From Promethearchaeota archaeon (lineage in GTDB: Archaea > Asgardarchaeota > Lokiarchaeia > Sigyniarchaeales > SOKP01), in NCBI GenBank assembly GCA_019057865.1, contig JAHLWP010000007.1, forward strand, positions 64,001-128,000: 64,000 nt of DNA. The letters run 5' to 3'. Position numbers and translations under genes: made by a program. The notes below the pieces were generated by a model. The model was not told the origin of the DNA and searched no databases. It saw only the letters and a list, made by a program, of their open reading frames with translations. Shown one piece after another: positions 38,371 to 52,172 of the stretch (position 1 is its first letter; the number at the start of each line of letters is the position of its first letter).

Positions 38371-39273
38371 TTAAATCCCTCTACTCTGCAACCATCCTTC
38401 CATAGTTAGTGAGTTGAAGAGACGAATATGTTTTGAATCTTTAGTATGAATTGTTAAATGATTCTTCTCAGAATTTCCTTTAACAGCAATGAGCATTTCC
38501 TCGCCATCTCTCACTATAACATATCTATCCTCACGTTCATAACTTCTTAGAGAAATGTTATCAAGACTAGTAAATTCATCTAATAATTCAGAATGTTCAT
38601 CTATTCCAGGATTAATTAAACAAGAGATCCTCATATTTACAGACGACTTCACTTCATAAAGATATAACTCTTGTAAATCAACAATAGTAGGAACGACAAT
38701 CATGACATTGTGCAAACCTTTTTCTAGAATTTCTCTCATTTTTATAAGAATTTCAGATTTTGTAATTTCAGTTTTGGTGAAATCAATGATTTTTGAACCT
38801 GATAAGCTTGATTGTGCTTGTCTTAATTTCTCATTTTCTAATTCTAACGTCTCTAAATCGACATCTGCCTTAGATAATTCATCATTTAAAATTTCTATCT
38901 CTTTTTGGAGTTTGTTGATTTTTTCATCTTTTTCTTTAAGAAGATTTTCATCAGTTATAGATGATGCCTGTGCTTTCAACTCCTCCTCTTTTAATTTAAT
39001 TGTTTTTCCTAATGTTGCTATTTTTTCATCTTTAGCTTTTATTTGCTGATCTTTTAATTCTAATGAATCACGAATAGTCTTTATTTGATCATCCTTTAAC
39101 TTTATTGAATCTTTAAGAGAATTTATAAGGCTATCTTGAGTTTGAAATTTTTCATTTAATTTATTTATAGATTCTCCAACTTTTCTTAATGTTTCGTCTT
39201 TTTTTTCAATTTCAGCTTGTAGCTTATTGATGAGTGCGTCTTTAGATTCATCATTTACCATTATGATATTCAC
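38371..39273 (-). CDS. Coiled-coil + PLD-like (TrmB effector-like) domain protein
   Basis: Repetitive KDxQI heptads; C-terminal VMIVVP...YVIVRDGEEMLIA, similar to the 5173..7173 domain. Confidence 0.6.
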   Translation of the reverse strand: MNIIMVNDESKDALINKLQAEIEKKDETLRKVGESINKLNEKFQTQDSLINSLKDSIKLKDDQIKTIRDSLELKDQQIKAKDEKIATLGKTIKLKEEELKAQASSITDENLLKEKDEKINKLQKEIEILNDELSKADVDLETLELENEKLRQAQSSLSGSKIIDFTKTEITKSEILIKMREILEKGLHNVMIVVPTIVDLQELYLYEVKSSVNMRISCLINPGIDEHSELLDEFTSLDNISLRSYEREDRYVIVRDGEEMLIAVKGNSEKNHLTIHTKDSKHIRLFNSLTMEGWLQSRGI

Positions 39274-39506
39274 AAAATCTTTTATATATATTAATAAAAA
39301 AGTTTAGCTTAAAATATATTTTCTATATTCTTAAAGTATATAAAATCTTGAAATATTTAAAATTGAACTACATTTTTCATTTTTAATATAAAACTAAATT
39401 AATAAGATTATCCTAGAATATTCAGATAATATCCTATTATAAAGTTTTAAGATTATTACTTGATTATTAGAATATCTTTTTATTTTTATAAGAAGAAGAT
39501 AACATT

Positions 39507-40244
39507 ATGGAAAAACACGATAATATGATAAAAGAATTAGAATCGGATGTCTCTGAACTGATAGAAAAAGAACTTCAATCGGCACCAGCCATTCTAGGTA
39601 TTAATGTTGGAACGCCTGAAGGAACTAGAATTGCGAGTAAATTCAAAAAAGAGATAAAAATGTCGATGAGTGAAGTAACGGCCGCTAGTAGTAGCCTTGT
39701 TTTTCTATCATCAAAAATTTTGAAGGATTCATTAAACCAAAAGATTTCTTATCATTTAATTACTGGAAAAGAAAAAATAATCCATTCTATTTTAACAGAA
39801 AACATTACGATGATTTCCTATCTGAATCGAGAATTAGCAGAACTCGAAGGACTAAGTATTTACATAAATAATTTATATAAATTAAGTCTACGGATATCAG
39901 CAATTATTGAAACTTCGGATATCCTCAAAGAACAAGTTTTTGTAGCTATAAAGAGAGCAATTCCTAACGCACTTGTTATAGCTATTATTACAAAAGACGG
40001 TTTACCCATTAAAATTCAAGCAACTATGCCTGAACCTATACTATCAGCTATTACTTCCGCAATATACAATTTAGCTGGTGTTTTATTAGAAGAAGGGTTA
40101 GAGTTTTCGATAATTGGAGGAGAAAACGGTTCAATTATTATTCATGAACTAGATGAGAATCGTATATTGGCAATGGCAGTTCCAGAGGCAGATGAAAGAA
40201 AGTTAGGTTCTTATATTGCGAAAATTAAGTCTATAATTCAATAA
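39507..40244 (+). CDS. Tandem Roadblock/LC7 (MglB-like) domain protein
   Basis: Two repeats: GTPEGTRIAS...VTAASSS and ITKDGLPI...LSAITSAI...GENGSIII. Confidence 0.85.
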   Translation: MEKHDNMIKELESDVSELIEKELQSAPAILGINVGTPEGTRIASKFKKEIKMSMSEVTAASSSLVFLSSKILKDSLNQKISYHLITGKEKIIHSILTENITMISYLNRELAELEGLSIYINNLYKLSLRISAIIETSDILKEQVFVAIKRAIPNALVIAIITKDGLPIKIQATMPEPILSAITSAIYNLAGVLLEEGLEFSIIGGENGSIIIHELDENRILAMAVPEADERKLGSYIAKIKSIIQ

Positions 40245-41542: not shown

Positions 41543-43747
41543 TTAAAGAATTTTCTTCAATTCTAATATCAAAGAAGAAGGATTATACTTATCAAATTTA
41601 TATACTTCTGCATTACCAAATTTTTTAAAGTTCTTTTTAATGTTATCTGCTGAATAAGTATGTACTCCTAAAGCCTGAGTAGCGTAAGATTTTTTTGGTT
41701 CTAATACAACTATATGGACTTTTTGTTTTGATAATTTTTTTGTTAAATCCTTCAATTCTTCAGTTACTAAGGCATAATCATTCTCAACTTGTGCAATTAA
41801 ATCAGGATATTTTACTGAAATATTGGCTCCACAGTCAGAAAATATAAAGATTACCGGGATAATATTTCGATTCTTTAGTTTCTCTGCTTTTATTAAATCT
41901 GAACATTTCTTTAATGCTGCTGCCATTGGAGTATAAGATTTTCCCTCTATTCTTTTCAATTTATTTACAGCGCTTTTAAAATTAACTGTAGGTTTTTGGA
42001 GAACAATTGCTTCTTTCCCTCTAAAAACAATTAAAGCAATTTTATCCTTTTTACGATACCCTTCTTTATGGAGAGACAATATAACGTCAGTCATTTGCTT
42101 TATTACATAATGCATTGATGCAGAACTATCGAGAACGAAAAAGAGAATTAAAGGAGCACGGTATTCATAAATTTTGTCCATTAAATCATATTTGTTAAAG
42201 TGTATTGGAAATTCAACGTCAGTTTGATTATATACTTTGTTTTTCAAATAATTTCTTATAGTTGCATCTAAAGCAATACTTTTTGGAAGTAGATTGATTG
42301 GCCTCCTATATGAGACATATCTCCCTTTTTGTGAAGATGATATTTTAATCCGCCTTCCTATACCTCTTCCTCCATAATCAGAAATTTTTCGATCTTTTCT
42401 AATATTATCCAATATTGAGGTCATTTTTTTTTCCATTTTATAAATAAATGTCCTATTACTTAATTTGTCCTCAAAAAATCGAAAGTCATCTTTTTCTCTA
42501 GGAATATTTTTTACTTTCCATCCTCCTGCAGGTTTAGGGCTCCTTTTTTTGTTATCAGGGTATTTAGGAGGGGGTAGTTTCTGTTCCTTTGTTTCAGGTA
42601 TATCAACTTTTTTAGGATCTACCGACTGACGTTTAAATTCCTTTTGCGGAGTATCGTCATGTTTTAAAGGACCTTCTGTGTCTTTATTAGGACGGTATGC
42701 TTTTGGGTCCTCATAGGCTTTCTGAATTTTACCATAGACTTCCGCAATTTTAGCCTTCACCTCCTTAGGGGTCATTTCGTAATGAAGTGATAGAATTCTA
42801 TGCTCAAACACTAAATCCATTGCCACATCTAAGTCTTCTTCAGTAATGATTTTCCTATCACTAAAAGCGGCATGAGCTCTAGCACACCGGATGAATGTTA
42901 TATCTGCTCTTTGAGAAAAGATTTCTAACTCATTAACTATTTTAGAAACAAACTCGTAAATAGAAGCGGGAATCTGGACTTCTTGAAGAATTTCTCGTGC
43001 TCTTACAATTCTATGTTTTAAAATCTCTTGTTCACTTTCATAGCATTTAATAAATTCTTTAGGATTATCATCAAATTCAATGACTTTTTTTGTTATTTCA
43101 GCTCGAAGTTTATTATCTCGAGGAGCTTTTATTCTAACTTCCAATCCAAGACGATCTGCGATCTGGGGTCTTAATTCACCCTCTTCAGGATTCATACTAC
43201 CTACTAATACAAATCTTGAAGGATGTGTAACAGAAATTCCTTCTCGCTCAATGATATTTATACCTGAAGCTGAAGCATCTAAAAGAGTATCAACGATATG
43301 ATCTTGCAGTAAATTAATTTCATCAATATATAAAATTCCTCTATTTGCTTTAGCTAATAATCCAGGATGAAGCTCTGATGTTCCCTCTGTTAATACACGA
43401 TCAATTGATAAGGAACCGCAAACCATATCTTCTGTTACACCAAGAGGGAGGTTAACCAATCGCATCTCTCGAAATTCAATTTCAATTTCCTTTTTCTTTT
43501 TCAATCTACAATCCTCACAAAGATCATCAATATTAGACTTAGGATTACAAGAAAACTGACAATCTTTAACAACTTCAATATCTGGCATTACTTCAACCAA
43601 AGATCTTACAGCAGTAGATTTTCCCGTACCTTGATGTCCCGTTAAAAGCACTCCTCCAATTTGGGGATCGATGACATTTAGTATTAGTGACATCTTCATC
43701 TTATCTTGTCCTAATATAGCAGTAAAAGGATAATTAATTTTTTTCAT
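41543..43747 (-). CDS. Mg-chelatase ChlI/ChlD-like AAA+ ATPase fused to vWA domain
   Basis: YPFTAILGQ, Walker A GHQGTGKS, Walker B LYIDE, GSMNPEEG; Pro-rich linker; MIDAS DSSAS. Confidence 0.9.
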   Translation of the reverse strand: MKKINYPFTAILGQDKMKMSLILNVIDPQIGGVLLTGHQGTGKSTAVRSLVEVMPDIEVVKDCQFSCNPKSNIDDLCEDCRLKKKKEIEIEFREMRLVNLPLGVTEDMVCGSLSIDRVLTEGTSELHPGLLAKANRGILYIDEINLLQDHIVDTLLDASASGINIIEREGISVTHPSRFVLVGSMNPEEGELRPQIADRLGLEVRIKAPRDNKLRAEITKKVIEFDDNPKEFIKCYESEQEILKHRIVRAREILQEVQIPASIYEFVSKIVNELEIFSQRADITFIRCARAHAAFSDRKIITEEDLDVAMDLVFEHRILSLHYEMTPKEVKAKIAEVYGKIQKAYEDPKAYRPNKDTEGPLKHDDTPQKEFKRQSVDPKKVDIPETKEQKLPPPKYPDNKKRSPKPAGGWKVKNIPREKDDFRFFEDKLSNRTFIYKMEKKMTSILDNIRKDRKISDYGGRGIGRRIKISSSQKGRYVSYRRPINLLPKSIALDATIRNYLKNKVYNQTDVEFPIHFNKYDLMDKIYEYRAPLILFFVLDSSASMHYVIKQMTDVILSLHKEGYRKKDKIALIVFRGKEAIVLQKPTVNFKSAVNKLKRIEGKSYTPMAAALKKCSDLIKAEKLKNRNIIPVIFIFSDCGANISVKYPDLIAQVENDYALVTEELKDLTKKLSKQKVHIVVLEPKKSYATQALGVHTYSADNIKKNFKKFGNAEVYKFDKYNPSSLILELKKIL

Positions 43748-43917: not shown

Positions 43918-44865
43918 TCAAAATTTTGATAAGTCATCAATTCTCTGGTCTAATTTAGAAATAACTTCATCCCAATTAGATAAGATTTCTTCTACTTTAG
44001 GAATAACTATATCTCTTTCCTTATATTCTAAATAATCTAAGAACTCTTTAATATTTTCAATTTTCATAAAAGTTTCTGCAACATACTTGCGAATCTCGGA
44101 TTTTTGATTATCTAGAACTTCAGGAACTCTGTTGTGTTCCCCACGTCGTATTAATGTCGCTATATATTCTTCTGTTCCTTGCAAAAGGGAATTTAATTGA
44201 TTTATCCGTTCCATGATAAATTTTTCATAGGACTCAAAAATTCTATCTTTTGGGAAAAAATTAGTAATATCTATGATAAATTTCTGGGTTAGCTTAACTA
44301 ATTGCTCCATACTTTCATATCCTTCAATTATATAATCAACAGTATGATAAGATGCTTCAATACCTTTATTAACATCATTCAATCTAAAAATTTTAAAACC
44401 AGGATCATTTTTTAATCGCTTTTCGGGATCCCCTTTTTTGTCTGCTACCTCGATTTGACGTATTAACCTTGTTGGATTAAATACGAGAGAAACTGCTAAT
44501 GGATTATTGGTTTGATAAGACAATGTGGTTTTAATATCTATGTGGCTCATCATTACTTTAAAACCGGGATGAGAATGCCACCAACCTACTGTAAATTCTT
44601 CTCGAGAAAACGCCTTATCATCAATAATATATAAAGCTTCATAATCTTCATCTGACCATTTATATTGGTCGATAACGGCATCCTTATCGAGTTTTTGATG
44701 CATAATGGGATAGGCTGCAGCAATCATTATGTCATCACCTTCATTTTTACCAATAAAAACACCACTTACTTCAAGCCAATCATCTTTTAGGATTTTCTGG
44801 TTAGCAAACCTCACAGTGGCAGCAACAATTGTCAAATAAACTTTCTTAGGGATGATTACTACCAT
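43918..44865 (-). CDS. MPN/JAB metalloprotease (JAMM intact) with helical C-terminus
   Basis: EVSG and WWHSHPGFKVMMSHID = E...HxH-x7-S-x2-D. Confidence 0.9.
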   Translation of the reverse strand: MVVIIPKKVYLTIVAATVRFANQKILKDDWLEVSGVFIGKNEGDDIMIAAAYPIMHQKLDKDAVIDQYKWSDEDYEALYIIDDKAFSREEFTVGWWHSHPGFKVMMSHIDIKTTLSYQTNNPLAVSLVFNPTRLIRQIEVADKKGDPEKRLKNDPGFKIFRLNDVNKGIEASYHTVDYIIEGYESMEQLVKLTQKFIIDITNFFPKDRIFESYEKFIMERINQLNSLLQGTEEYIATLIRRGEHNRVPEVLDNQKSEIRKYVAETFMKIENIKEFLDYLEYKERDIVIPKVEEILSNWDEVISKLDQRIDDLSKF

Positions 44866-45031
44866 ATTCTTAAATCATTTTTTTAATTATTCAAATGGAA
44901 TTATATTGATTAATACTAATTTTACTATTTATGTTTTAGTTTGAATATAAAATTATATAACTATGAAATTTATATTATAATATTATTACAATATTCAATT
45001 CTCAAAATTATATGCAATTTTATAGATAATT

Positions 45032-45685
45032 ATGTCATTAAATTTTGAACCATTAACAAGTCAATTGGGTGTTCCTGGGACTTCCTATAGACTTCAATTA
45101 GGATCAATTAATGGGAAATGGGCTTGTAGATTATTGAAGGGAAAAAATGTAATTGATTCTTATGTATTCAAAGATGAAGATGTGCTAGATGATATTCCTA
45201 ATCAAAATCGAATTGTTTCATGGGTCTTAATGACTGTAGCTATTCCAAATATAAACCCTCATCAAATTATGAAAACAACGCAGGCCTTGGTCAAACAAGC
45301 ACTCAAAAAGAAGGAAGAAAGAAAAGCAGTAGCACCCATATCTGAAACAAAAAAAGTAGAGTTAGAGAGAGTTCCCGAAAGTGAATTGAAACGACCTAAA
45401 GTGGCTGGATGGGTTAAAGAAGAGGGAATGAAAACAGTTCAGGAATTAGAAGATGAAAAACGACAAGCATTTAAAGAAAGGATGATCCATAAAAGGGAAG
45501 AAGAAAGAACTCGAGAGGCTTCTACTTTAAAAACTTCAAGAGAATTACCATCTATTCCTACAGGTGCAGGTGGAACAAATGTATCTGCTGGTGCTGAGGT
45601 ATCAAAATTTTGTCCATTTTGTGGAAAAGATTTAAACTGGAAATTTTGTCCTAATTGTGGGAAACCTCTACCCCATGAAGATTAA
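45032..45685 (+). CDS. Hypothetical protein: beta-rich N-terminal domain, charged helix, double Zn ribbon
   Basis: C-terminal FCPFCG...FCPNCG. Confidence 0.75.
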   Translation: MSLNFEPLTSQLGVPGTSYRLQLGSINGKWACRLLKGKNVIDSYVFKDEDVLDDIPNQNRIVSWVLMTVAIPNINPHQIMKTTQALVKQALKKKEERKAVAPISETKKVELERVPESELKRPKVAGWVKEEGMKTVQELEDEKRQAFKERMIHKREEERTREASTLKTSRELPSIPTGAGGTNVSAGAEVSKFCPFCGKDLNWKFCPNCGKPLPHED

Positions 45686-45826
45686 TTTATTATTATTTTA
45701 GTAAAATCTATTTTTGAAAAAAATTATTTTTAATTTCTAAAATTCAATTCAAAAATTTAAAACATTTAAATTATATATGGATAAAAAATTAACTATATCT
45801 AAAACTCATAAAAATCGTGATTAAAT

Positions 45827-47302
45827 TTGACATCTGATAAAACTGTCATCATTAAACCACTCGCGTATTATAAAATGCTCATTCATGTTTTACGTTTTGG
45901 TTCTAAAGTAAGAGATCGCAAACAATATAAAGAGGTAATGGGGATCTTAATTGGTCGTCTTGAGTCAGGAGAACCTGATAAAAAAGGGATCAATGATGTA
46001 ATTGTGGAAGATGCAGTACCAATTTCCCATGGCGGCTCAATAGAAGTTGATTTTGCCCCAGAAGATTATGTAACATTCTCCATGGTAGATGCAGAATTTG
46101 CAGAAAAAGGATGGTTTAGTGTAGGGTGGTACCATTCACACCCTGGTTTGAAGATATTCTTTTCGAGTACGGATATAAAAAACATGCTTGGTTGGCAGAC
46201 TCCGAACCCAAGCGCTATTGGAATTGTCTTCGACCATACTTTCTTAGAAAAACCCGGAGATATGGGATTTCGCGCATTTAGATTAGATGACACTTCTAAA
46301 GGCCAAACAACAGGGTATCATGAAGTAAGAACTGTAGTCGAACCTCCAGATAGTCTTGAATATTACCAAAGACTTATGGAATTAATTAACAGTGTTCACT
46401 CTAAAGAACCGCCAATCTTAGAACTTAATGAATTGCCTGACTTATTTGGTGATATTGCTATTCCTAGTCAAGATCAATTAATAACTAAAAAACCAGAATT
46501 AGAATTAACTAAAATATTTTCTGCTATCCAGAATGGAATATCAAGTTTTTTAGAGTTGACAATTGAACCATCTGTTAAATTTCTTAATACGTGGAGTCAA
46601 GAGATGATTAGAAAAACCATTGAATCTAATTTAGAAATGAGAAATAACATTTTAGCTATAAAGGAAAAGATTGGAAATGGTATCTCTAATATACAAAAAG
46701 ATTTTAAATTTTCCTTAAAAGATAAATTGAATCAATTAGATATGTATATCGATGATAAATTTGATGAATTTGATAATAACAATGAAAATCTTAAAGAAAT
46801 TATAAGTCAAATTAAAATTGAACTTAATGATAAATTGAAGGTCATATTTGAAGAAAAGCTAAAGGTTTCTCTAGATCAAGGTATAAACTCGTTTAAAGAA
46901 AATCTAGAAAATTTAACAAAAATAAATCAAGAAAGTTCTATTTTTATTGAAAAATTAGAAGGTGAACGCAAGTCTCTAAATAATGTATCAGAGAATATTA
47001 ATTCTATTGAAGATTCAATCAACAATAAATTAAAGAATATACAAGACGAAGTCATAAATAAACTATCCAAAAACACTAATAAAATTGTTGGAAATTTTAT
47101 TAATTTAAATAAAGACACAAAGAGTTTCTTATCAGATTTAAAAGCCGCAATTATATTACTGGAAAGTTCAAAGAATCCTATACAGAATAAGATAAAAATC
47201 TTAGAAACAGAAAATAAGACCCTCCAAAAAGATTTATTAGAGTTGAAAAATGAAAATCAAGATTTAATGATTAAATTAAAAAAATATGAAGGAGGAGAAT
47301 AA
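45827..47302 (+). CDS. Rpn11/CSN5-like MPN+ metalloprotease with long coiled-coil tail
   Basis: VIIKPLAYYKMLIH...EVMGILIG...GWYHSHPGLKIFFSSTD: complete JAMM motif; C-terminal half is heptad-rich. Confidence 0.92.
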   Translation: MTSDKTVIIKPLAYYKMLIHVLRFGSKVRDRKQYKEVMGILIGRLESGEPDKKGINDVIVEDAVPISHGGSIEVDFAPEDYVTFSMVDAEFAEKGWFSVGWYHSHPGLKIFFSSTDIKNMLGWQTPNPSAIGIVFDHTFLEKPGDMGFRAFRLDDTSKGQTTGYHEVRTVVEPPDSLEYYQRLMELINSVHSKEPPILELNELPDLFGDIAIPSQDQLITKKPELELTKIFSAIQNGISSFLELTIEPSVKFLNTWSQEMIRKTIESNLEMRNNILAIKEKIGNGISNIQKDFKFSLKDKLNQLDMYIDDKFDEFDNNNENLKEIISQIKIELNDKLKVIFEEKLKVSLDQGINSFKENLENLTKINQESSIFIEKLEGERKSLNNVSENINSIEDSINNKLKNIQDEVINKLSKNTNKIVGNFINLNKDTKSFLSDLKAAIILLESSKNPIQNKIKILETENKTLQKDLLELKNENQDLMIKLKKYEGGE

Positions 47303-48715
47303 TTGAAAATGCCTGAAAATGAATTAAACAACAATAAGGACAAAAATGAGAAAGATCAAACCATTCCAACGAAAAATAGACAAATAATAATAAAAAAAGA
47401 AGCTTTCAGGAATATGATAACCCATGTTTTAAGATTTGGAAGCATTGCATTAGAAAAGAGTGTAGAGGTTATGGGCATTTGCTTAGGAGAATTAACTGAG
47501 AATGAGAAAGACATTGTTTTAATCAATGCTATTCCGATTACTCATGGAAAAAAAGTATCAGCAGGTTTTACTAAAGACGATTATGATTTATTAACTCAAC
47601 TTGAAAAACAATATCAAAAGAAGAATCTTAATATTGTAGGATGGTATAGTTCACACCCCGGGTGGGGTCTTTATTTTTCTGACTTAGAGATAAAAACTCA
47701 TCAATTTTTTCAAAAGGAAAGTAATCCTAACGGATTTTTTGTTGTTTTTGATCATACTTTAATGGATAAAGATAAGACTTTTGGTTTTGAGATTTATAGA
47801 TTTGATGATTTTAAAAAAGCAGATAAATATCATAATGTAGTATTTGAAATTGAAGAACCAGCAACCCTAGATTATTTTAAATGGGTTCAGAAATTTGTAG
47901 AAGATTTTCAAAAACAGACATCTATCTTAATTAAAGAAATTAGTGAATCAAAAGAGTCAATTCCGGGTGAATTACAAGAAATACCAATATCAGAGGAAAT
48001 ATCACCAGAAGAAGAATTTGATGATTATTCACAAATTTCACCGATAATTTCAGGATTTCAAAAAGGAGTGTCTAGATTTTCTGAATCGGTGATAGATACC
48101 TTCAAGTCTCAATTTGGAGATTGGACCAATGATCTTAAAGAAGGATCTTCGAAAGGTTCAGAATATTTACGTAATAGTGTAAATAAAATGAAAGAGGCAG
48201 CATCTCAGAGTCTTATTAAAGTAGAGAATTGGTTTAAAAAAAATTTAGATAGTATGTTAAACGAATTTAAAGAAACTGTGGTTAATTATGTAGATAATAG
48301 AGTTGAAGCTCAGACTGAACTCAGAAATGATCTCAATAATATAAAAAATGATCTTTTTAATGATTTAAATATCGTTGTTGATGAAAATTTAAAATATATT
48401 AAAAGTGAAATAGCATCTGTTGTTAAATTAACAACTGAAAAAGTAAATAATAGCACTCAAATAAATTCTAAGATTGAAGAGATGATTGGCAGTATTTCTA
48501 AAGTAATCTTAGCAATTGAAAATGAATCAAGTGATCTAGGTAGTAAAATAGAAAAAAATATTGAAACAACGATTGATCAATTTGAAACAAGTATTAATGA
48601 AAAAATTGAAAAAATGAGTTCAGAATTACAACCATTTAAAGAATATTACTTAGAAATTAGTGAATTGTTAGAAAAGTTACAAAAAATAATCACAGATTTT
48701 CGCATGAAGATATAG
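47303..48715 (+). CDS. MPN- (catalytically degenerate JAMM) paralog with coiled-coil tail
   Basis: EVMGICLG...GWYSSHPGWGLYFSDLE: His1->Ser and Asp->Glu; abuts the upstream stop, with GGAGG RBS inside the upstream gene. Confidence 0.88.
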   Translation: MKMPENELNNNKDKNEKDQTIPTKNRQIIIKKEAFRNMITHVLRFGSIALEKSVEVMGICLGELTENEKDIVLINAIPITHGKKVSAGFTKDDYDLLTQLEKQYQKKNLNIVGWYSSHPGWGLYFSDLEIKTHQFFQKESNPNGFFVVFDHTLMDKDKTFGFEIYRFDDFKKADKYHNVVFEIEEPATLDYFKWVQKFVEDFQKQTSILIKEISESKESIPGELQEIPISEEISPEEEFDDYSQISPIISGFQKGVSRFSESVIDTFKSQFGDWTNDLKEGSSKGSEYLRNSVNKMKEAASQSLIKVENWFKKNLDSMLNEFKETVVNYVDNRVEAQTELRNDLNNIKNDLFNDLNIVVDENLKYIKSEIASVVKLTTEKVNNSTQINSKIEEMIGSISKVILAIENESSDLGSKIEKNIETTIDQFETSINEKIEKMSSELQPFKEYYLEISELLEKLQKIITDFRMKI

Positions 48716-48749
48716 TGGTTAATGAATTACATATATAGAGGGATCTGAG

Positions 48750-48938
48750 TTGACACCGTCAAGAAAGAAAATGTTAAAGAAGGTAGACGAAGCTATAAAA
48801 GTATTGGATAATCAAATCAACAATCCTGATGGGATCGATGAAAACAAGCTAAAAGAGTTAATGGAATTGAAGGAAGAACTCGAGAAATCAAAAAAAGTGA
48901 TAAAAAAGAGACACTTTGACCTCTTACCTTACAGGTAA
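48750..48938 (+). CDS. Small helical-hairpin protein
   Basis: TTG start 34 nt after the MPN- stop; two amphipathic helices. Confidence 0.6.
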   Translation: MTPSRKKMLKKVDEAIKVLDNQINNPDGIDENKLKELMELKEELEKSKKVIKKRHFDLLPYR

Positions 48939-48977
48939 GAAGGAATAAAATCAACTAAAAAATTAAAGATTTCTGAA

Positions 48978-48994
48978 GTGAGCTGAAAGCTCAT
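48978..48994 (+). other. Short stable hairpin downstream of the MPN operon
   Basis: GTGAGCT-GAA-AGCTCAT, flanked by CTGA and GAT. Confidence 0.45.
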
Positions 48995-49258
48995 GATTAA
49001 TTTCTACATCTCTAATTTTTTAGAGATATATATAATATGTTATATCCGGGAGGAGTTGAGCGAGAAAGTTATAAAATAAATAAAAATTTAGGCATAGAAG
49101 TTTTTTTTTATATGATTCTGATCTTTTATTTAATTTTTTTATTTCTTATTTTTATATCCATTTGTCAATTTTTGATTACAAAAGAGCAGAGATTACGATT
49201 ATGGATCCATGGAGGATGATTTTGACTATTGGGAAGAGACAGTAGGTGTAAAAATGGT

Positions 49259-49543
49259 TTAGAAAAATTTCAAGTTTGAAACTTTAGAAATTTGTAATCT
49301 ATATTTCGGAATGTTAGTATTCAATCGCTTTAAATGATTCAATTTAGCGATTTTGCCTAAAACTCTTCCGATTCTGTCAACTTTAACGTCAATTCCAAAA
49401 TTTTCTTTAAGAACTGAATTAATTTTATAGGACGATAATATAACAACACGTGAGATATTTTTTTCACATAACAACTCAATTGCTTTTTTTACTAAGCTAA
49501 TTAGAGTTTCTTTATTATCTATCTTAATTTTTTCCATTCTCAA
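49259..49543 (-). CDS. Small basic winged-helix-like protein
   Basis: Helix-turn-helix-wing pattern (SSYKIN...VDRIGRVL...PKYRL). Confidence 0.5.
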   Translation of the reverse strand: MRMEKIKIDNKETLISLVKKAIELLCEKNISRVVILSSYKINSVLKENFGIDVKVDRIGRVLGKIAKLNHLKRLNTNIPKYRLQISKVSNLKFF

Positions 49544-49674
49544 TAATTTAAAAAAAATTTCGTATAATTAAATTTATTTTTAACCATTTTTAAAACTTTC
49601 ATCTAAGTTTGATTCTTAAATTTGTTTTAACTTTATAATTAGGTTTAAATTAAAAAAAATGATTTATTAATATA

Positions 49675-49827
49675 ATGTCTGATAAGCAATCTAATTCTGT
49701 TAATTCTCTAAGAAAATCAAATATATCTAAAGAACAAAAAAGTTCAGAAACAGAAATAAAATTACTCAAATTAAACCGTCATATTTATCACATACTTCAA
49801 AAATTGGGAGGCGTAGGTTCAAAATGA
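49675..49827 (+). CDS. Small 50-aa protein translationally coupled to the downstream membrane protein (not in ORF track)
   Basis: MSDKQSNSVNSLRK...HILQKLGGVGSK; its TGA overlaps the next ATG (ATGA) and it contains the GGAGG RBS. Confidence 0.5.
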   Translation: MSDKQSNSVNSLRKSNISKEQKSSETEIKLLKLNRHIYHILQKLGGVGSK

Positions 49828-52172
49828 AAAAAAGAGAGTCTTTATCGACCCTTCGAACAAAAATTGCAGCCTTTAAGTCAAGAACAGGTGAAAAATTAAA
49901 GGTATTTGCGGATAAACTTGTTCACAAGGAAGTCTATGTTGATGGGCAAGAACCTCCAAAATCTTATTCATTTGAAAAAAAGTTCTTTGGCTTATATTTC
50001 ATTTTTATAATATCTTCTTTTGTCTTAATATTAACAATTAACATTTCACAAAAGAATTCTATAAATACAGTAATTTTTGCTATTTCAAATGCAATTGTTG
50101 CATTCTTTCTAGTACTATCTGGATTGTTAAGTATAGATAGATTTAGAATTTTCTTATTTGAAGAAAAAACTTTAATTAAACAACTTATTCTTTATTCAGG
50201 TTTATTTACTTTACTTATTCCCGTTTCTTTTTATATCTCAACAGATATTAACTTTATTACGTATTTATTGATTTTCGCAATGATATGGTTATTTCTTCTA
50301 AGTAGCAAATTCTATATTTATTCTAGGAAATTTGCTACAAAAATTGAAGCTAGATTTATTAAAAAATATTCTATCCTTAGATATCTTGTCGCAATTATTA
50401 TCCCCTTTTTAATATTAGGTGTTCTTGTTATTCTTTCACTATTTTATAGGACTTTTTTAGTGTGGCTCTCATTGGATTTCTTTGGAAATAGTGATCCTAG
50501 TTCTGCTGTTGCTGTATATAATCTAGAAATGCGTGTAGTTATGCCGCTAATTTATTTTAGTTTGGTATTAACATTAGTATTTATAATTTTTGAATTTGTT
50601 TTTACTAGAAGGCGTGCAGAAACAAAAAGAGCTGGAACTTTTGATAATTTTACTTTTTCTTTAATTGTTTTATTCATCTTTTTCTTTCAAATTTTACAAA
50701 TCAGTATCTTTATGTTATTAAGACCAGAAACAATAGATGCCTTTAAAGCAACGGTAGGAGTTATTGGCTCGCCTGTCGGTTATATTATAATTTTTGAGTC
50801 TGTCATTTCTATGTATTTTCTATATAGGGTTATTAAAAAAACTGGTAGAACATTAGGTTGGCGTATCTTTATATTTAAGAAAGATGGATTAATTTTGTTC
50901 TTTTTAGCATGTGTCCTCGCTCAAACTATGACACGTTTTGCACTAGCAAATGAAATAGCAAATCAAGAAATAACTCCAATAGGAACATTGTTAATGGCGG
51001 ATAAATATGTAATTTCAGTATTGATGATTTTTCTCTTAGGTAGTACTTTATTAGTCTATTATATAAAACCTCATGAGACTTCAATGTTCATGAGACTTCA
51101 AAAAGAATTAGTATATGATGAAGAAAAGAATATTGAAAAAATTTATAACATTATAAGAAGTGAATATATCCGGAGGGGAGAGGCTTTTCCAATTGAAATA
51201 CTTGAACGTGAATTAATTAAAGCAACTCGACTATCAAAAGGTAATGTTTACTCTCTAGTTGAGCAATTAGCGATAAAAGATATGGATATTCTGATAACCG
51301 AGAGAAAAGAAGAATTTGGAACACCCGTAAAATTTATAGATTTCACCTCTGTTACCGAACGATTTGATAGAAAAGAAATAGCACAAGAAAAAGCTAAAAA
51401 ATATTTAACCAAAAGATTATATGAAACAAGTTTGGCGAAAAGGAGTGAAAAAAGCAGATTAAAAGCTGTCAGCGAATCAGAAAAAGCTTCAGATCAACTT
51501 ATTACCTCTCTTACTGCAAATTATACAAAAAAGCAAGTAGATGAACGAGAAATTGAAAAAGTAAAAGAAGAAGCAAAAGTAACAGAAGATTTGAGAGTAA
51601 AGTTAACAGATGCTTTAAAAAATCAACTATTACAAACGATTAAAAATGAATACTTCTATAGGATTGAGAACAATGATAAATATTTAGACTTTTATGTCCC
51701 TATTTCTGAAGTGTCAGATCAAATTGAATTAAATACGAAAATCACTCCTGGAGAATTATATCCCATTTTAGAAAGTCTCAGTATTATTGATTTGGAATTG
51801 ACTCTAATTGATAATCCTGATGAACCTGAAGATAAGAAAATCAAATTCTTACCCTTTGCTGATGATAATATGAACTTTTCTTTAGCAAATTTTCGACCAG
51901 AAGAGTATGCTAAATTTAAAATTAATGTAATTAAAAATTTTCATAGAGCTCTTAAAACTAAGAAAGAAAAAAGAAGTTTATTTCAGTTGAAAAAAGGGAT
52001 TTCAGATAAATTCGAAGGTCAAAAATCATGGCTTAGTTTATTAGATAATTTATATAGATATTATCCTTTATATACTGAAAAATTATCTTCTGTTCCTAAT
52101 ACAACAAAACTTAGAAATCAGTTGAGGAAAATGGAAGAATTTTATGAAAGAAAACATAACTTAAACAGTTAA
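49824..52172 (+). CDS. Polytopic membrane protein (~11 TM) with large cytoplasmic tail carrying a duplicated wHTH-like module
   Basis: Hydrophobic to about aa 415; repeats IIRSEYIRR...PIEILERELIKATRLSKGNVYSLVEQL and TIKNEYFYR...PISEVSDQIELNTKITPGELYPILESL. Confidence 0.7.
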   Translation: MKKRESLSTLRTKIAAFKSRTGEKLKVFADKLVHKEVYVDGQEPPKSYSFEKKFFGLYFIFIISSFVLILTINISQKNSINTVIFAISNAIVAFFLVLSGLLSIDRFRIFLFEEKTLIKQLILYSGLFTLLIPVSFYISTDINFITYLLIFAMIWLFLLSSKFYIYSRKFATKIEARFIKKYSILRYLVAIIIPFLILGVLVILSLFYRTFLVWLSLDFFGNSDPSSAVAVYNLEMRVVMPLIYFSLVLTLVFIIFEFVFTRRRAETKRAGTFDNFTFSLIVLFIFFFQILQISIFMLLRPETIDAFKATVGVIGSPVGYIIIFESVISMYFLYRVIKKTGRTLGWRIFIFKKDGLILFFLACVLAQTMTRFALANEIANQEITPIGTLLMADKYVISVLMIFLLGSTLLVYYIKPHETSMFMRLQKELVYDEEKNIEKIYNIIRSEYIRRGEAFPIEILERELIKATRLSKGNVYSLVEQLAIKDMDILITERKEEFGTPVKFIDFTSVTERFDRKEIAQEKAKKYLTKRLYETSLAKRSEKSRLKAVSESEKASDQLITSLTANYTKKQVDEREIEKVKEEAKVTEDLRVKLTDALKNQLLQTIKNEYFYRIENNDKYLDFYVPISEVSDQIELNTKITPGELYPILESLSIIDLELTLIDNPDEPEDKKIKFLPFADDNMNFSLANFRPEEYAKFKINVIKNFHRALKTKKEKRSLFQLKKGISDKFEGQKSWLSLLDNLYRYYPLYTEKLSSVPNTTKLRNQLRKMEEFYERKHNLNS

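Follow-up and report, generated by a model that had tools for sequence, protein, structure and literature searches.

The eukaryotic MPN proteases CSN5, Rpn11 and BRCC36 require an inactive MPN partner (MPN-), and their helices are donated to an inter-subunit bundle. The archaeal JAMM enzymes characterised so far are small soluble proteins tied to ubiquitin or SAMP operons. In solution, CsRpn11 of Ca. Caldiarchaeum subterraneum is a monomer, and it can process its ubiquitin CsUb with no auxiliary factor. It has neither Ins-2 nor the additional C-terminal helices by which eukaryotic Rpn11 is anchored in the lid (PMC6043591). The locus described here was found in a 64,000-nt stretch (the window) of a lokiarchaeial genome (GCA_019057865.1, contig JAHLWP010000007.1, positions 64,001 to 128,000). 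It comprises three MPN genes (mpnA, mpnB, mpnC), a zinc-ribbon gene (ZnR) and an open reading frame (ORF) of 62 amino acids (s62). In MpnA, an Ins-2-like insertion and a helical tail are both present, although the two cultured Lokiarchaeia encode no MPN- partner for it.

The region is probably an inherited gene order, in which mpnA would encode a stand-alone ubiquitin/SAMP-type isopeptidase acting in trans, mpnB and mpnC a separate operon, ZnR a linked neighbour and s62 a passenger. The simplest reading is that of two modules, contiguous in this family. The first would be mpnA, a Lokiarchaeia-wide JAMM zinc isopeptidase gene, head to head with ZnR, the gene of a widespread Asgard domain. The second would be mpnB-mpnC, a pair coupled in translation, with long-tailed products and a putative promoter of its own. 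This reading is preferred because the two pairs part in the sister family and because single-contig genomes keep mpnA without mpnB or mpnC. The original prediction had proposed a dedicated complex of all five gene products. Its five ORFs were all present where it had placed them, with 166 nt from start to start between mpnA and ZnR. The features are as follows.

41543-43747, minus strand: ChlI/D-type AAA+-vWA gene, conserved neighbour downstream of mpnA and part of the family-wide syntenic block
43918-44865, minus strand: mpnA, 315 aa; MPN with intact JAMM, Ins-1, Ins-2-like insertion and C-terminal helical bundle
44536-44577, minus strand: JAMM motif codons of mpnA, with the F102/K103 junction between 44560 and 44559
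44866-45031, no strand: divergent intergenic region of 166 nt, with separate conserved AT-rich elements upstream of mpnA and of ZnR (comparison of congener upstream regions)
45032-45685, plus strand: ZnR, 217 aa; N-terminal domain (aa 1-98), charged linker and C-terminal four-cysteine ribbon
45765-45779, plus strand: TATA-like conserved element, some 55 nt before mpnB
45827-47302, plus strand: mpnB, 491 aa; MPN with an intact JAMM, followed by a long helical/coiled-coil tail
47303-48715, plus strand: mpnC, 470 aa; MPN with degenerate JAMM and a long helical tail, abutting mpnB
48705-49248, no strand: insertion of 544 bp, replacing 58 bp of the nearest species
48750-48938, plus strand: s62, 62-aa helical ORF, passenger gene inside the insertion
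49259-52172: a 94-aa gene (minus strand) and a 782-aa membrane protein gene (plus strand), the conserved true downstream neighbours of mpnC

Gene order was compared across related genomes. Within the genus, mpnA and ZnR are adjacent in 34 of 35 loci, and ZnR-mpnB-mpnC follows in 32. The other genera of the family keep the mpnA-ZnR pair in 14/17 loci. The four-gene order holds across the family and so does the surrounding block of 20 kb, in which the genes for the ChlI/D-type ATPase, an ATP-grasp protein, a roadblock protein, the 94-aa protein, the 782-aa membrane protein and an MFS protein are as syntenic as the MPN genes. The linkage within the family says little, because these unrelated flanking genes are equally syntenic. 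The gene-neighbourhood conservation proposed as a check was thus found for four of the five genes across the family, but in the sister family the block splits into mpnA-ZnR and mpnB-mpnC. There, mpnA and ZnR stand head to head in 8 genomes from 4 genera; their other neighbours differ, and the flanks read contain no mpnB or mpnC. Among the 8 are P. syntrophicum MK-D1 (mpnA, DSAG12_03478; ZnR, DSAG12_03477) and Ca. L. ossiferum B-35 (ZnR, NEF87_001340). Conversely, mpnB-mpnC lies apart from mpnA-ZnR in three genomes of the sister family or its neighbour (G051, G038, G042). One genus (g18) keeps ZnR-mpnB-mpnC and has mpnA moved away, and one locus (G090) has no mpnC. ZnR and mpnA are apart in two genera, by about 40 kb in Ca. 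Harpocratesius. In the single-contig genomes of MK-D1, B-35 and Ca. Harpocratesius, searches with MpnB, MpnC and a three-way alignment matched only mpnA and short JAMMs.

Two further observations concern the surroundings. A coiled-coil gene stands head to head with a tandem-roadblock gene (window 38371-40244), and this pair is located within about 8 kb of mpnA even in the sister-family genomes G037 and G055. In the single-contig genome G006, the block is broken within ZnR and its halves lie 1.66 Mb apart (L016:9479-9742, L043:10602-10889), by inversion or misassembly.

All three MPN proteins exceed the Pfam JAB cut-off, MpnA with 52.8 bits (cut-off 22.5). MpnA and MpnB have the motif E...HxH-x7-S-x2-D. 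MpnA had been predicted as a third active JAMM; it is the third MPN, although just two in the locus, MpnA and MpnB, have an intact JAMM. Its motif residues are E32, H97, H99, S107 and D110. In 50 orthologues, E32, H97, H99 and D110 are invariant and S107 is conserved to at least 90%; several residues of Ins-2 and of the tail are invariant as well. The Ins-2-like insertion, a conserved one of about 15 aa, lies at approximately aa 131-155, and the helical bundle covers aa 186-313, about 130 aa. Some orthologues of other genera (L089, L092, L093, L094) change the serine or the Ser-Asp spacing (SGFGD, THLD, TSLD). A second mpnA copy in G034 (L044:2906-6439) forms the end of a 1178-aa fusion protein and has no recognisable JAMM motif.

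The best sequence matches of MpnA are CSN5, Rpn11, CsRpn11 and BRCC36, with CSN5 at the top (E 3.5e-11). CSN5 is also the best Foldseek match. The AlphaFold (AF2) single-chain model has a pLDDT of 93.8 and a pTM of 0.90, and the helical tail packs on its own MPN domain. The MPN domain superimposes well on that of CsRpn11 (VIA Z 18.7, root-mean-square deviation (rmsd) 1.9 over 142 residues) and CSN5 (VIA Z 18.2). Over the full length, the rmsd to CSN5, Rpn11 and BRCC36 is 13-21 Å: the MPN domain matches, the tail does not, and in superposition it departs from the extended helices of the eukaryotic subunits. These comparisons suggest orthology to no single one of the three. An obligate MPN- partner, as in eukaryotes, is not indicated for MpnA: three single-contig genomes encode mpnA and have no mpnB or mpnC orthologue. 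PCI/winged-helix domains gave six weak matches in four ORFs of the genome, none of them in the window.

By established JAMM chemistry, His97, His99 and Asp110 of MpnA would bind the zinc ion, Glu32 would activate the water and Ser107 would stabilise the oxyanion. The enzyme is probably self-sufficient. It may work without MpnB and MpnC as a monomer or homo-oligomer, with the tail resting on its own MPN domain. The Ins-2-like insertion and the conserved tail surface may select the substrate. Cleavage would occur after the C-terminal glycine of a modifier, ubiquitin-like or of SAMP type, whose gene lies elsewhere in the genome.

Candidates for such modifiers exist in trans, as does ligation machinery. 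The genome has seven MPN genes, and two of those outside the locus lie within clusters of ubiquitin or ubiquitin-like (Ubl) proteins with E1 and E2. The cluster on contig C41 (59830-65170) encodes two Ubls ending in STAG, an E1, an E2 and a JAMM; that on contig C54 (79130-81540) encodes a ubiquitin ending in GG-YYKH, an E2, an E1 and a short JAMM. Several GG-ending SAMP/MoaD-like ORFs elsewhere in the genome are candidate substrates. A third E1 and E2 are located together on contig C18. As originally noted for the window, no E1 or E2 gene is present, and this extends to the whole contig. The proposed separation from the ubiquitin-E1-E2-JAMM operons also stands, as these sit on other contigs with JAMM paralogues of their own. 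None of the loci read has a Ubl gene linked to mpnA.

The three MPNs had been considered a local expansion on the basis of the shared sequences RF(G/A), GFxx(F/Y)R and YHxV. The signature is indeed common to all three but not specific to the locus; an unlinked paralogue on contig C66 also carries it (RYA, GFEIYR, YHKV). A tree of the MPN domains places mpnA in a supported clade of its own that spans five families (98/94) and groups loosely with unlinked paralogues (91/91), with mpnB and mpnC grouping apart. An approximately unbiased (AU) test did not reject a single clade of mpnA, mpnB and mpnC (p 0.24). From the tree and this test it follows that any local duplication would predate the order; the expansion would be ancient at best, with mpnA and mpnB each representing an orthologue group of order- to class-wide extent. 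The depth of the tree ruled out a recent tandem triplication.

The mpnA gene of the window is uninterrupted. The first sign was a split of mpnA at the JAMM motif in seven congeners. In total, 12 of 53 genomes of the genus (L075-L086) carry an insert of 29-32 nt at F102|K103 (window 44559/44560) and none of 81 genomes of other genera does; the pattern search requires exact flanks, and both counts are limits. The insert is likely a bulge-helix-bulge (BHB) intron with predicted splicing. Excision at the BHB positions restores WWHSHP(G/D)FKVMM in 12/12, and all unspliced reading frames hit a stop or shift frame. All 11 distinct sequences keep the 4-bp central helix between the two bulges paired, and two of the four pairs show double-sided changes, a value reached by none of 500 shuffles. 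The stem beside the 5' bulge is looser in 5/12. A search of five genomes, of which four carry the intron, found two splicing endonuclease genes (PF01974) in every one. The genus tree requires at least 5 gains or losses of the intron, which is present in a close relative of the window's species. Programmed -1 frameshifting and pseudogenes were ruled out as explanations of the split genes, as the DNA has an insert of 29-32 nt at one site.

A published precedent for a coding region is the BHB intron in the cbf5 pre-mRNA of Crenarchaeota (PMC2738675). Both are short inserts at one site in a conserved coding motif, have the BHB shape and are patchily distributed. The cbf5 intron differs in phylum and gene, and the mpnA intron is known here from DNA. 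Descriptions of Asgard mRNA BHB introns or of these MPN paralogues were not found in a literature search that left most subscription journals outside.

ZnR had been described as a double zinc-ribbon protein. Its four cysteines in two CxxC (C194/197, C206/209; CxxC-x8-CxxC, 45611-45658) make one ribbon. Pfam DZR (PF12773) gave 25.6 bits, under the cut-off of 27.3, and Zn_Ribbon_1 (PF13240) passed with 25.7 bits (cut-off 25). ZnR resembles the proteins of both families in the C-terminal CxxC-x8-CxxC, but it holds half a DZR, and its defining part is an N-terminal domain without a family. The ribbon is the variable part and dispensable within the family. It is replaced by a coiled coil in MK-D1, B-35 and Ca. 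Harpocratesius; distant orthologues of sister orders have a true DZR with four CxxC at this position, and one more distant Asgard orthologue has an ATC-hydrolase/DUF6125-like domain.

The N-terminal domain of about 95 aa was modelled with three main strands and two helices (pLDDT about 90). It has no Pfam family, no PDB sequence match and no usable Atlas feature match. Foldseek returned nothing at E 0.001 or better (best E 0.07). PH/EVH1-like and PC4-like folds were compared. The best VIA match is a de novo protein (Z 6.7, rmsd 3.1, 73 aligned), and EVH1 gave Z 5.0 (rmsd 4.2, 80 aligned); these weak matches show neither a new fold nor its absence. In the Atlas structure search, its own cluster stood alone near the top. 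The domain forms only 160 clusters among 1.84 billion representatives. It was found in 174 of 250 Asgard genomes searched, mostly in single copy, and not in a block of other families. Two proteins (P0133, P0134) contain two copies each. Fusions place the domain behind Ras/Roc-type GTPases in three proteins and a gelsolin-like domain in one (P0161, P0172, P0226, P0202).

ZnR is most likely a co-regulated neighbour of mpnA and possibly its adaptor. The AT-rich elements in the 166-nt region are putative back-to-back promoters. An alternative, which appears unlikely but not negligible, is that MpnA and ZnR form a two-component deubiquitinase. The ZnR N-domain or a conserved linker motif would dock on MpnA and take it to its substrates, and CDC48 or another part of the proteostasis machinery might take part. 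Across the order, neither gene keeps any other neighbour as persistently as its head-to-head partner, and conserved non-catalytic residues in Ins-2 and the tail of MpnA could serve such docking. The ZnR orthologues of Thor-like genomes (L125:7180-11953, L122, L123, L124, L126) are next to or near genes for CDC48 and an AN1-zinc-finger M50 peptidase, and some of these loci also have gelsolin-like genes close by. Hel-like and other lineages again show the AN1-M50 gene beside ZnR (L108-L110, L113, L120). However, in the 23 loci read outside the two closest families, ZnR is never next to an MPN gene, despite its presence in most Asgard genomes. None of 150 representatives of the domain is fused to an MPN, the fusions seen being those with GTPases and a gelsolin-like domain, and the separation from mpnA in two genera also speaks against a fixed partnership. 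ZnR looks like a general adaptor module. Its tie to MpnA is one of gene position alone.

A broader version of this alternative is more doubtful. Here, MpnA and the ZnR N-domain would be a new type of two-component deubiquitinase that is joined in the family by a stalked MpnB-MpnC pair, giving a multi-MPN assembly without PCI subunits, and in some species the synthesis of MpnA would depend on an mRNA splicing event of tRNA type within the catalytic motif.

The pair mpnB-mpnC is the second module. The stop codon of mpnB is directly followed by the mpnC start, and the last part of mpnB contains a GGAGG. The predicted pair of an active and an inactive MPN was confirmed for the window: the JAMM of MpnB is intact and MpnC has lost the first His and the Asp (SSHP...SDLE). 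In relatives, the MpnC motif is intact in 23 of 47 and otherwise degenerate in several different ways. The MPN- state therefore seems recent and labile, unlike that of an ancient Rpn8/CSN6-type subunit. The TATA-like element is a putative promoter of the pair's own, with 31 TATA-like matches in the -55 bin among 48 orthologous mpnB upstream regions. A sigma-70 promoter scan remained at chance level, the model being unsuited to archaea. In G051 (L061:5446-9667), two additional short MPN-like genes of 203 and 246 aa, of which the longer has no JAMM, lie directly upstream of the pair, and both members of the pair have kept the JAMM. In G008 (L031:7093-8639), mpnB is split at approximately residue 215, between MPN domain and tail.

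MpnA, ZnR, MpnB and MpnC might also build a four-subunit complex confined to the family, with a BRISC-like helical bundle, and lineages without mpnB and mpnC would use a reduced form. This seems improbable. The order is kept in nearly all family members sampled, insertions are more often outside than inside the block, and all three MPNs have helical tails, like eukaryotic MPN subunits. Against this stand the equal synteny of the flanking genes, the TATA-like element before mpnB, the single-contig genomes that have mpnA and neither of the others, the missing mpnC of G090 and the displaced mpnA of g18. The tails also differ greatly in length, about 130 versus 270-300 aa.

It is very improbable that MpnA is no modifier protease at all, with the zinc site kept for a non-ubiquitin substrate or for a scaffold role like that of EMC8/9. 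EMC8/9 align well and cover the position of the tail (Z 16.9, rmsd 2.7 over 170 residues), a few orthologues have altered the serine or the Ser-Asp spacing, and mpnA has no Ubl gene beside it. Against this reading, the full catalytic set is invariant or nearly invariant across the class, the closest sequences are CSN5, Rpn11, CsRpn11 and BRCC36, and EMC8/9 have no JAMM site.

The fifth gene does not belong to the conserved locus. The insertion, which contains s62 and also alters the last mpnC codons, stands in for 58 bp in the three nearest species. This block also occurs, at the same site, in a 97%-identical strain, and an assembly error is excluded for this reason. The ORF is a real gene at its predicted place, but sporadic: it was absent from all 52 orthologous loci of other species, and homologues (60-78% identity) were found in 5 of 153 other genomes of the order. 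These adjoin a DNA methyltransferase, Roc-type GTPases and repeat proteins, and never an MPN locus. By this distribution, s62 is a sporadic passenger gene. The same insertion holds a hydrophobic 60-aa ORF ending in HGG (49037-49219). It has no ubiquitin-like pattern, is not called in the sister strain and is probably not a gene. The single dedicated complex of all five products can hardly be upheld: s62 is co-oriented with mpnC, 34 nt downstream, and has a ribosome-binding-site-like GAGGGA, but it entered as a recent species-level insertion and has its homologues beside unrelated genes, unrelated neighbours are linked to the locus just as tightly, and the two pairs split in the sister family.

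Several points weigh against an inherited gene order with a self-sufficient MpnA. The single-chain model may fold back helices that are exchanged between subunits in vivo. The four genes stay together across the whole family, and the AU test left a common clade of the three MPNs standing. ZnR accompanies mpnA in one lineage and mpnB-mpnC in another, as a looser functional network would also produce. The adjacency counts cover related genomes and are not independent.

With the case for a five-subunit complex removed, there remain a tailed JAMM enzyme found throughout Lokiarchaeia and an uncharacterised domain of Asgard archaea, both accessible in cultured strains. The MK-D1 genes DSAG12_03478 and 03477 allow a direct test of the role of Ins-2 and tail before or apart from PCI/MPN complexes. 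About half of the Asgard families share the 95-aa domain of ZnR as a nearly single-copy marker. The intron-bearing relatives have a ubiquitin-system protease gene that appears to need tRNA-type splicing.

The known systems match parts of the locus. The mpnB-mpnC pair resembles BRCC36 with Abraxas or ABRO1 as adjacent active and inactive MPNs with long helical tails. MpnC differs by its labile inactivity, and both genes are paralogues within Lokiarchaeia; the resemblance is best taken as an analogy. MpnA shares with CSN5, Rpn11 and BRCC36 the size of about 315 aa and the architecture, an MPN+ domain that bears Ins-1 and Ins-2 and precedes a set of C-terminal helices. It differs in its occurrence in genomes without an mpnB or mpnC orthologue and in a modelled tail that is not superposable. 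CsRpn11 (PDB 6FNN, 6FJU) is encoded in an operon with ubiquitin, E1, E2 and RING and has no Ins-2, whereas mpnA is unlinked to ubiquitin genes and encodes a conserved Ins-2-like insertion and a 130-aa helical bundle. Both have the MPN fold and the full JAMM motif, and MpnA is probably active without an MPN- partner, as CsRpn11 is.

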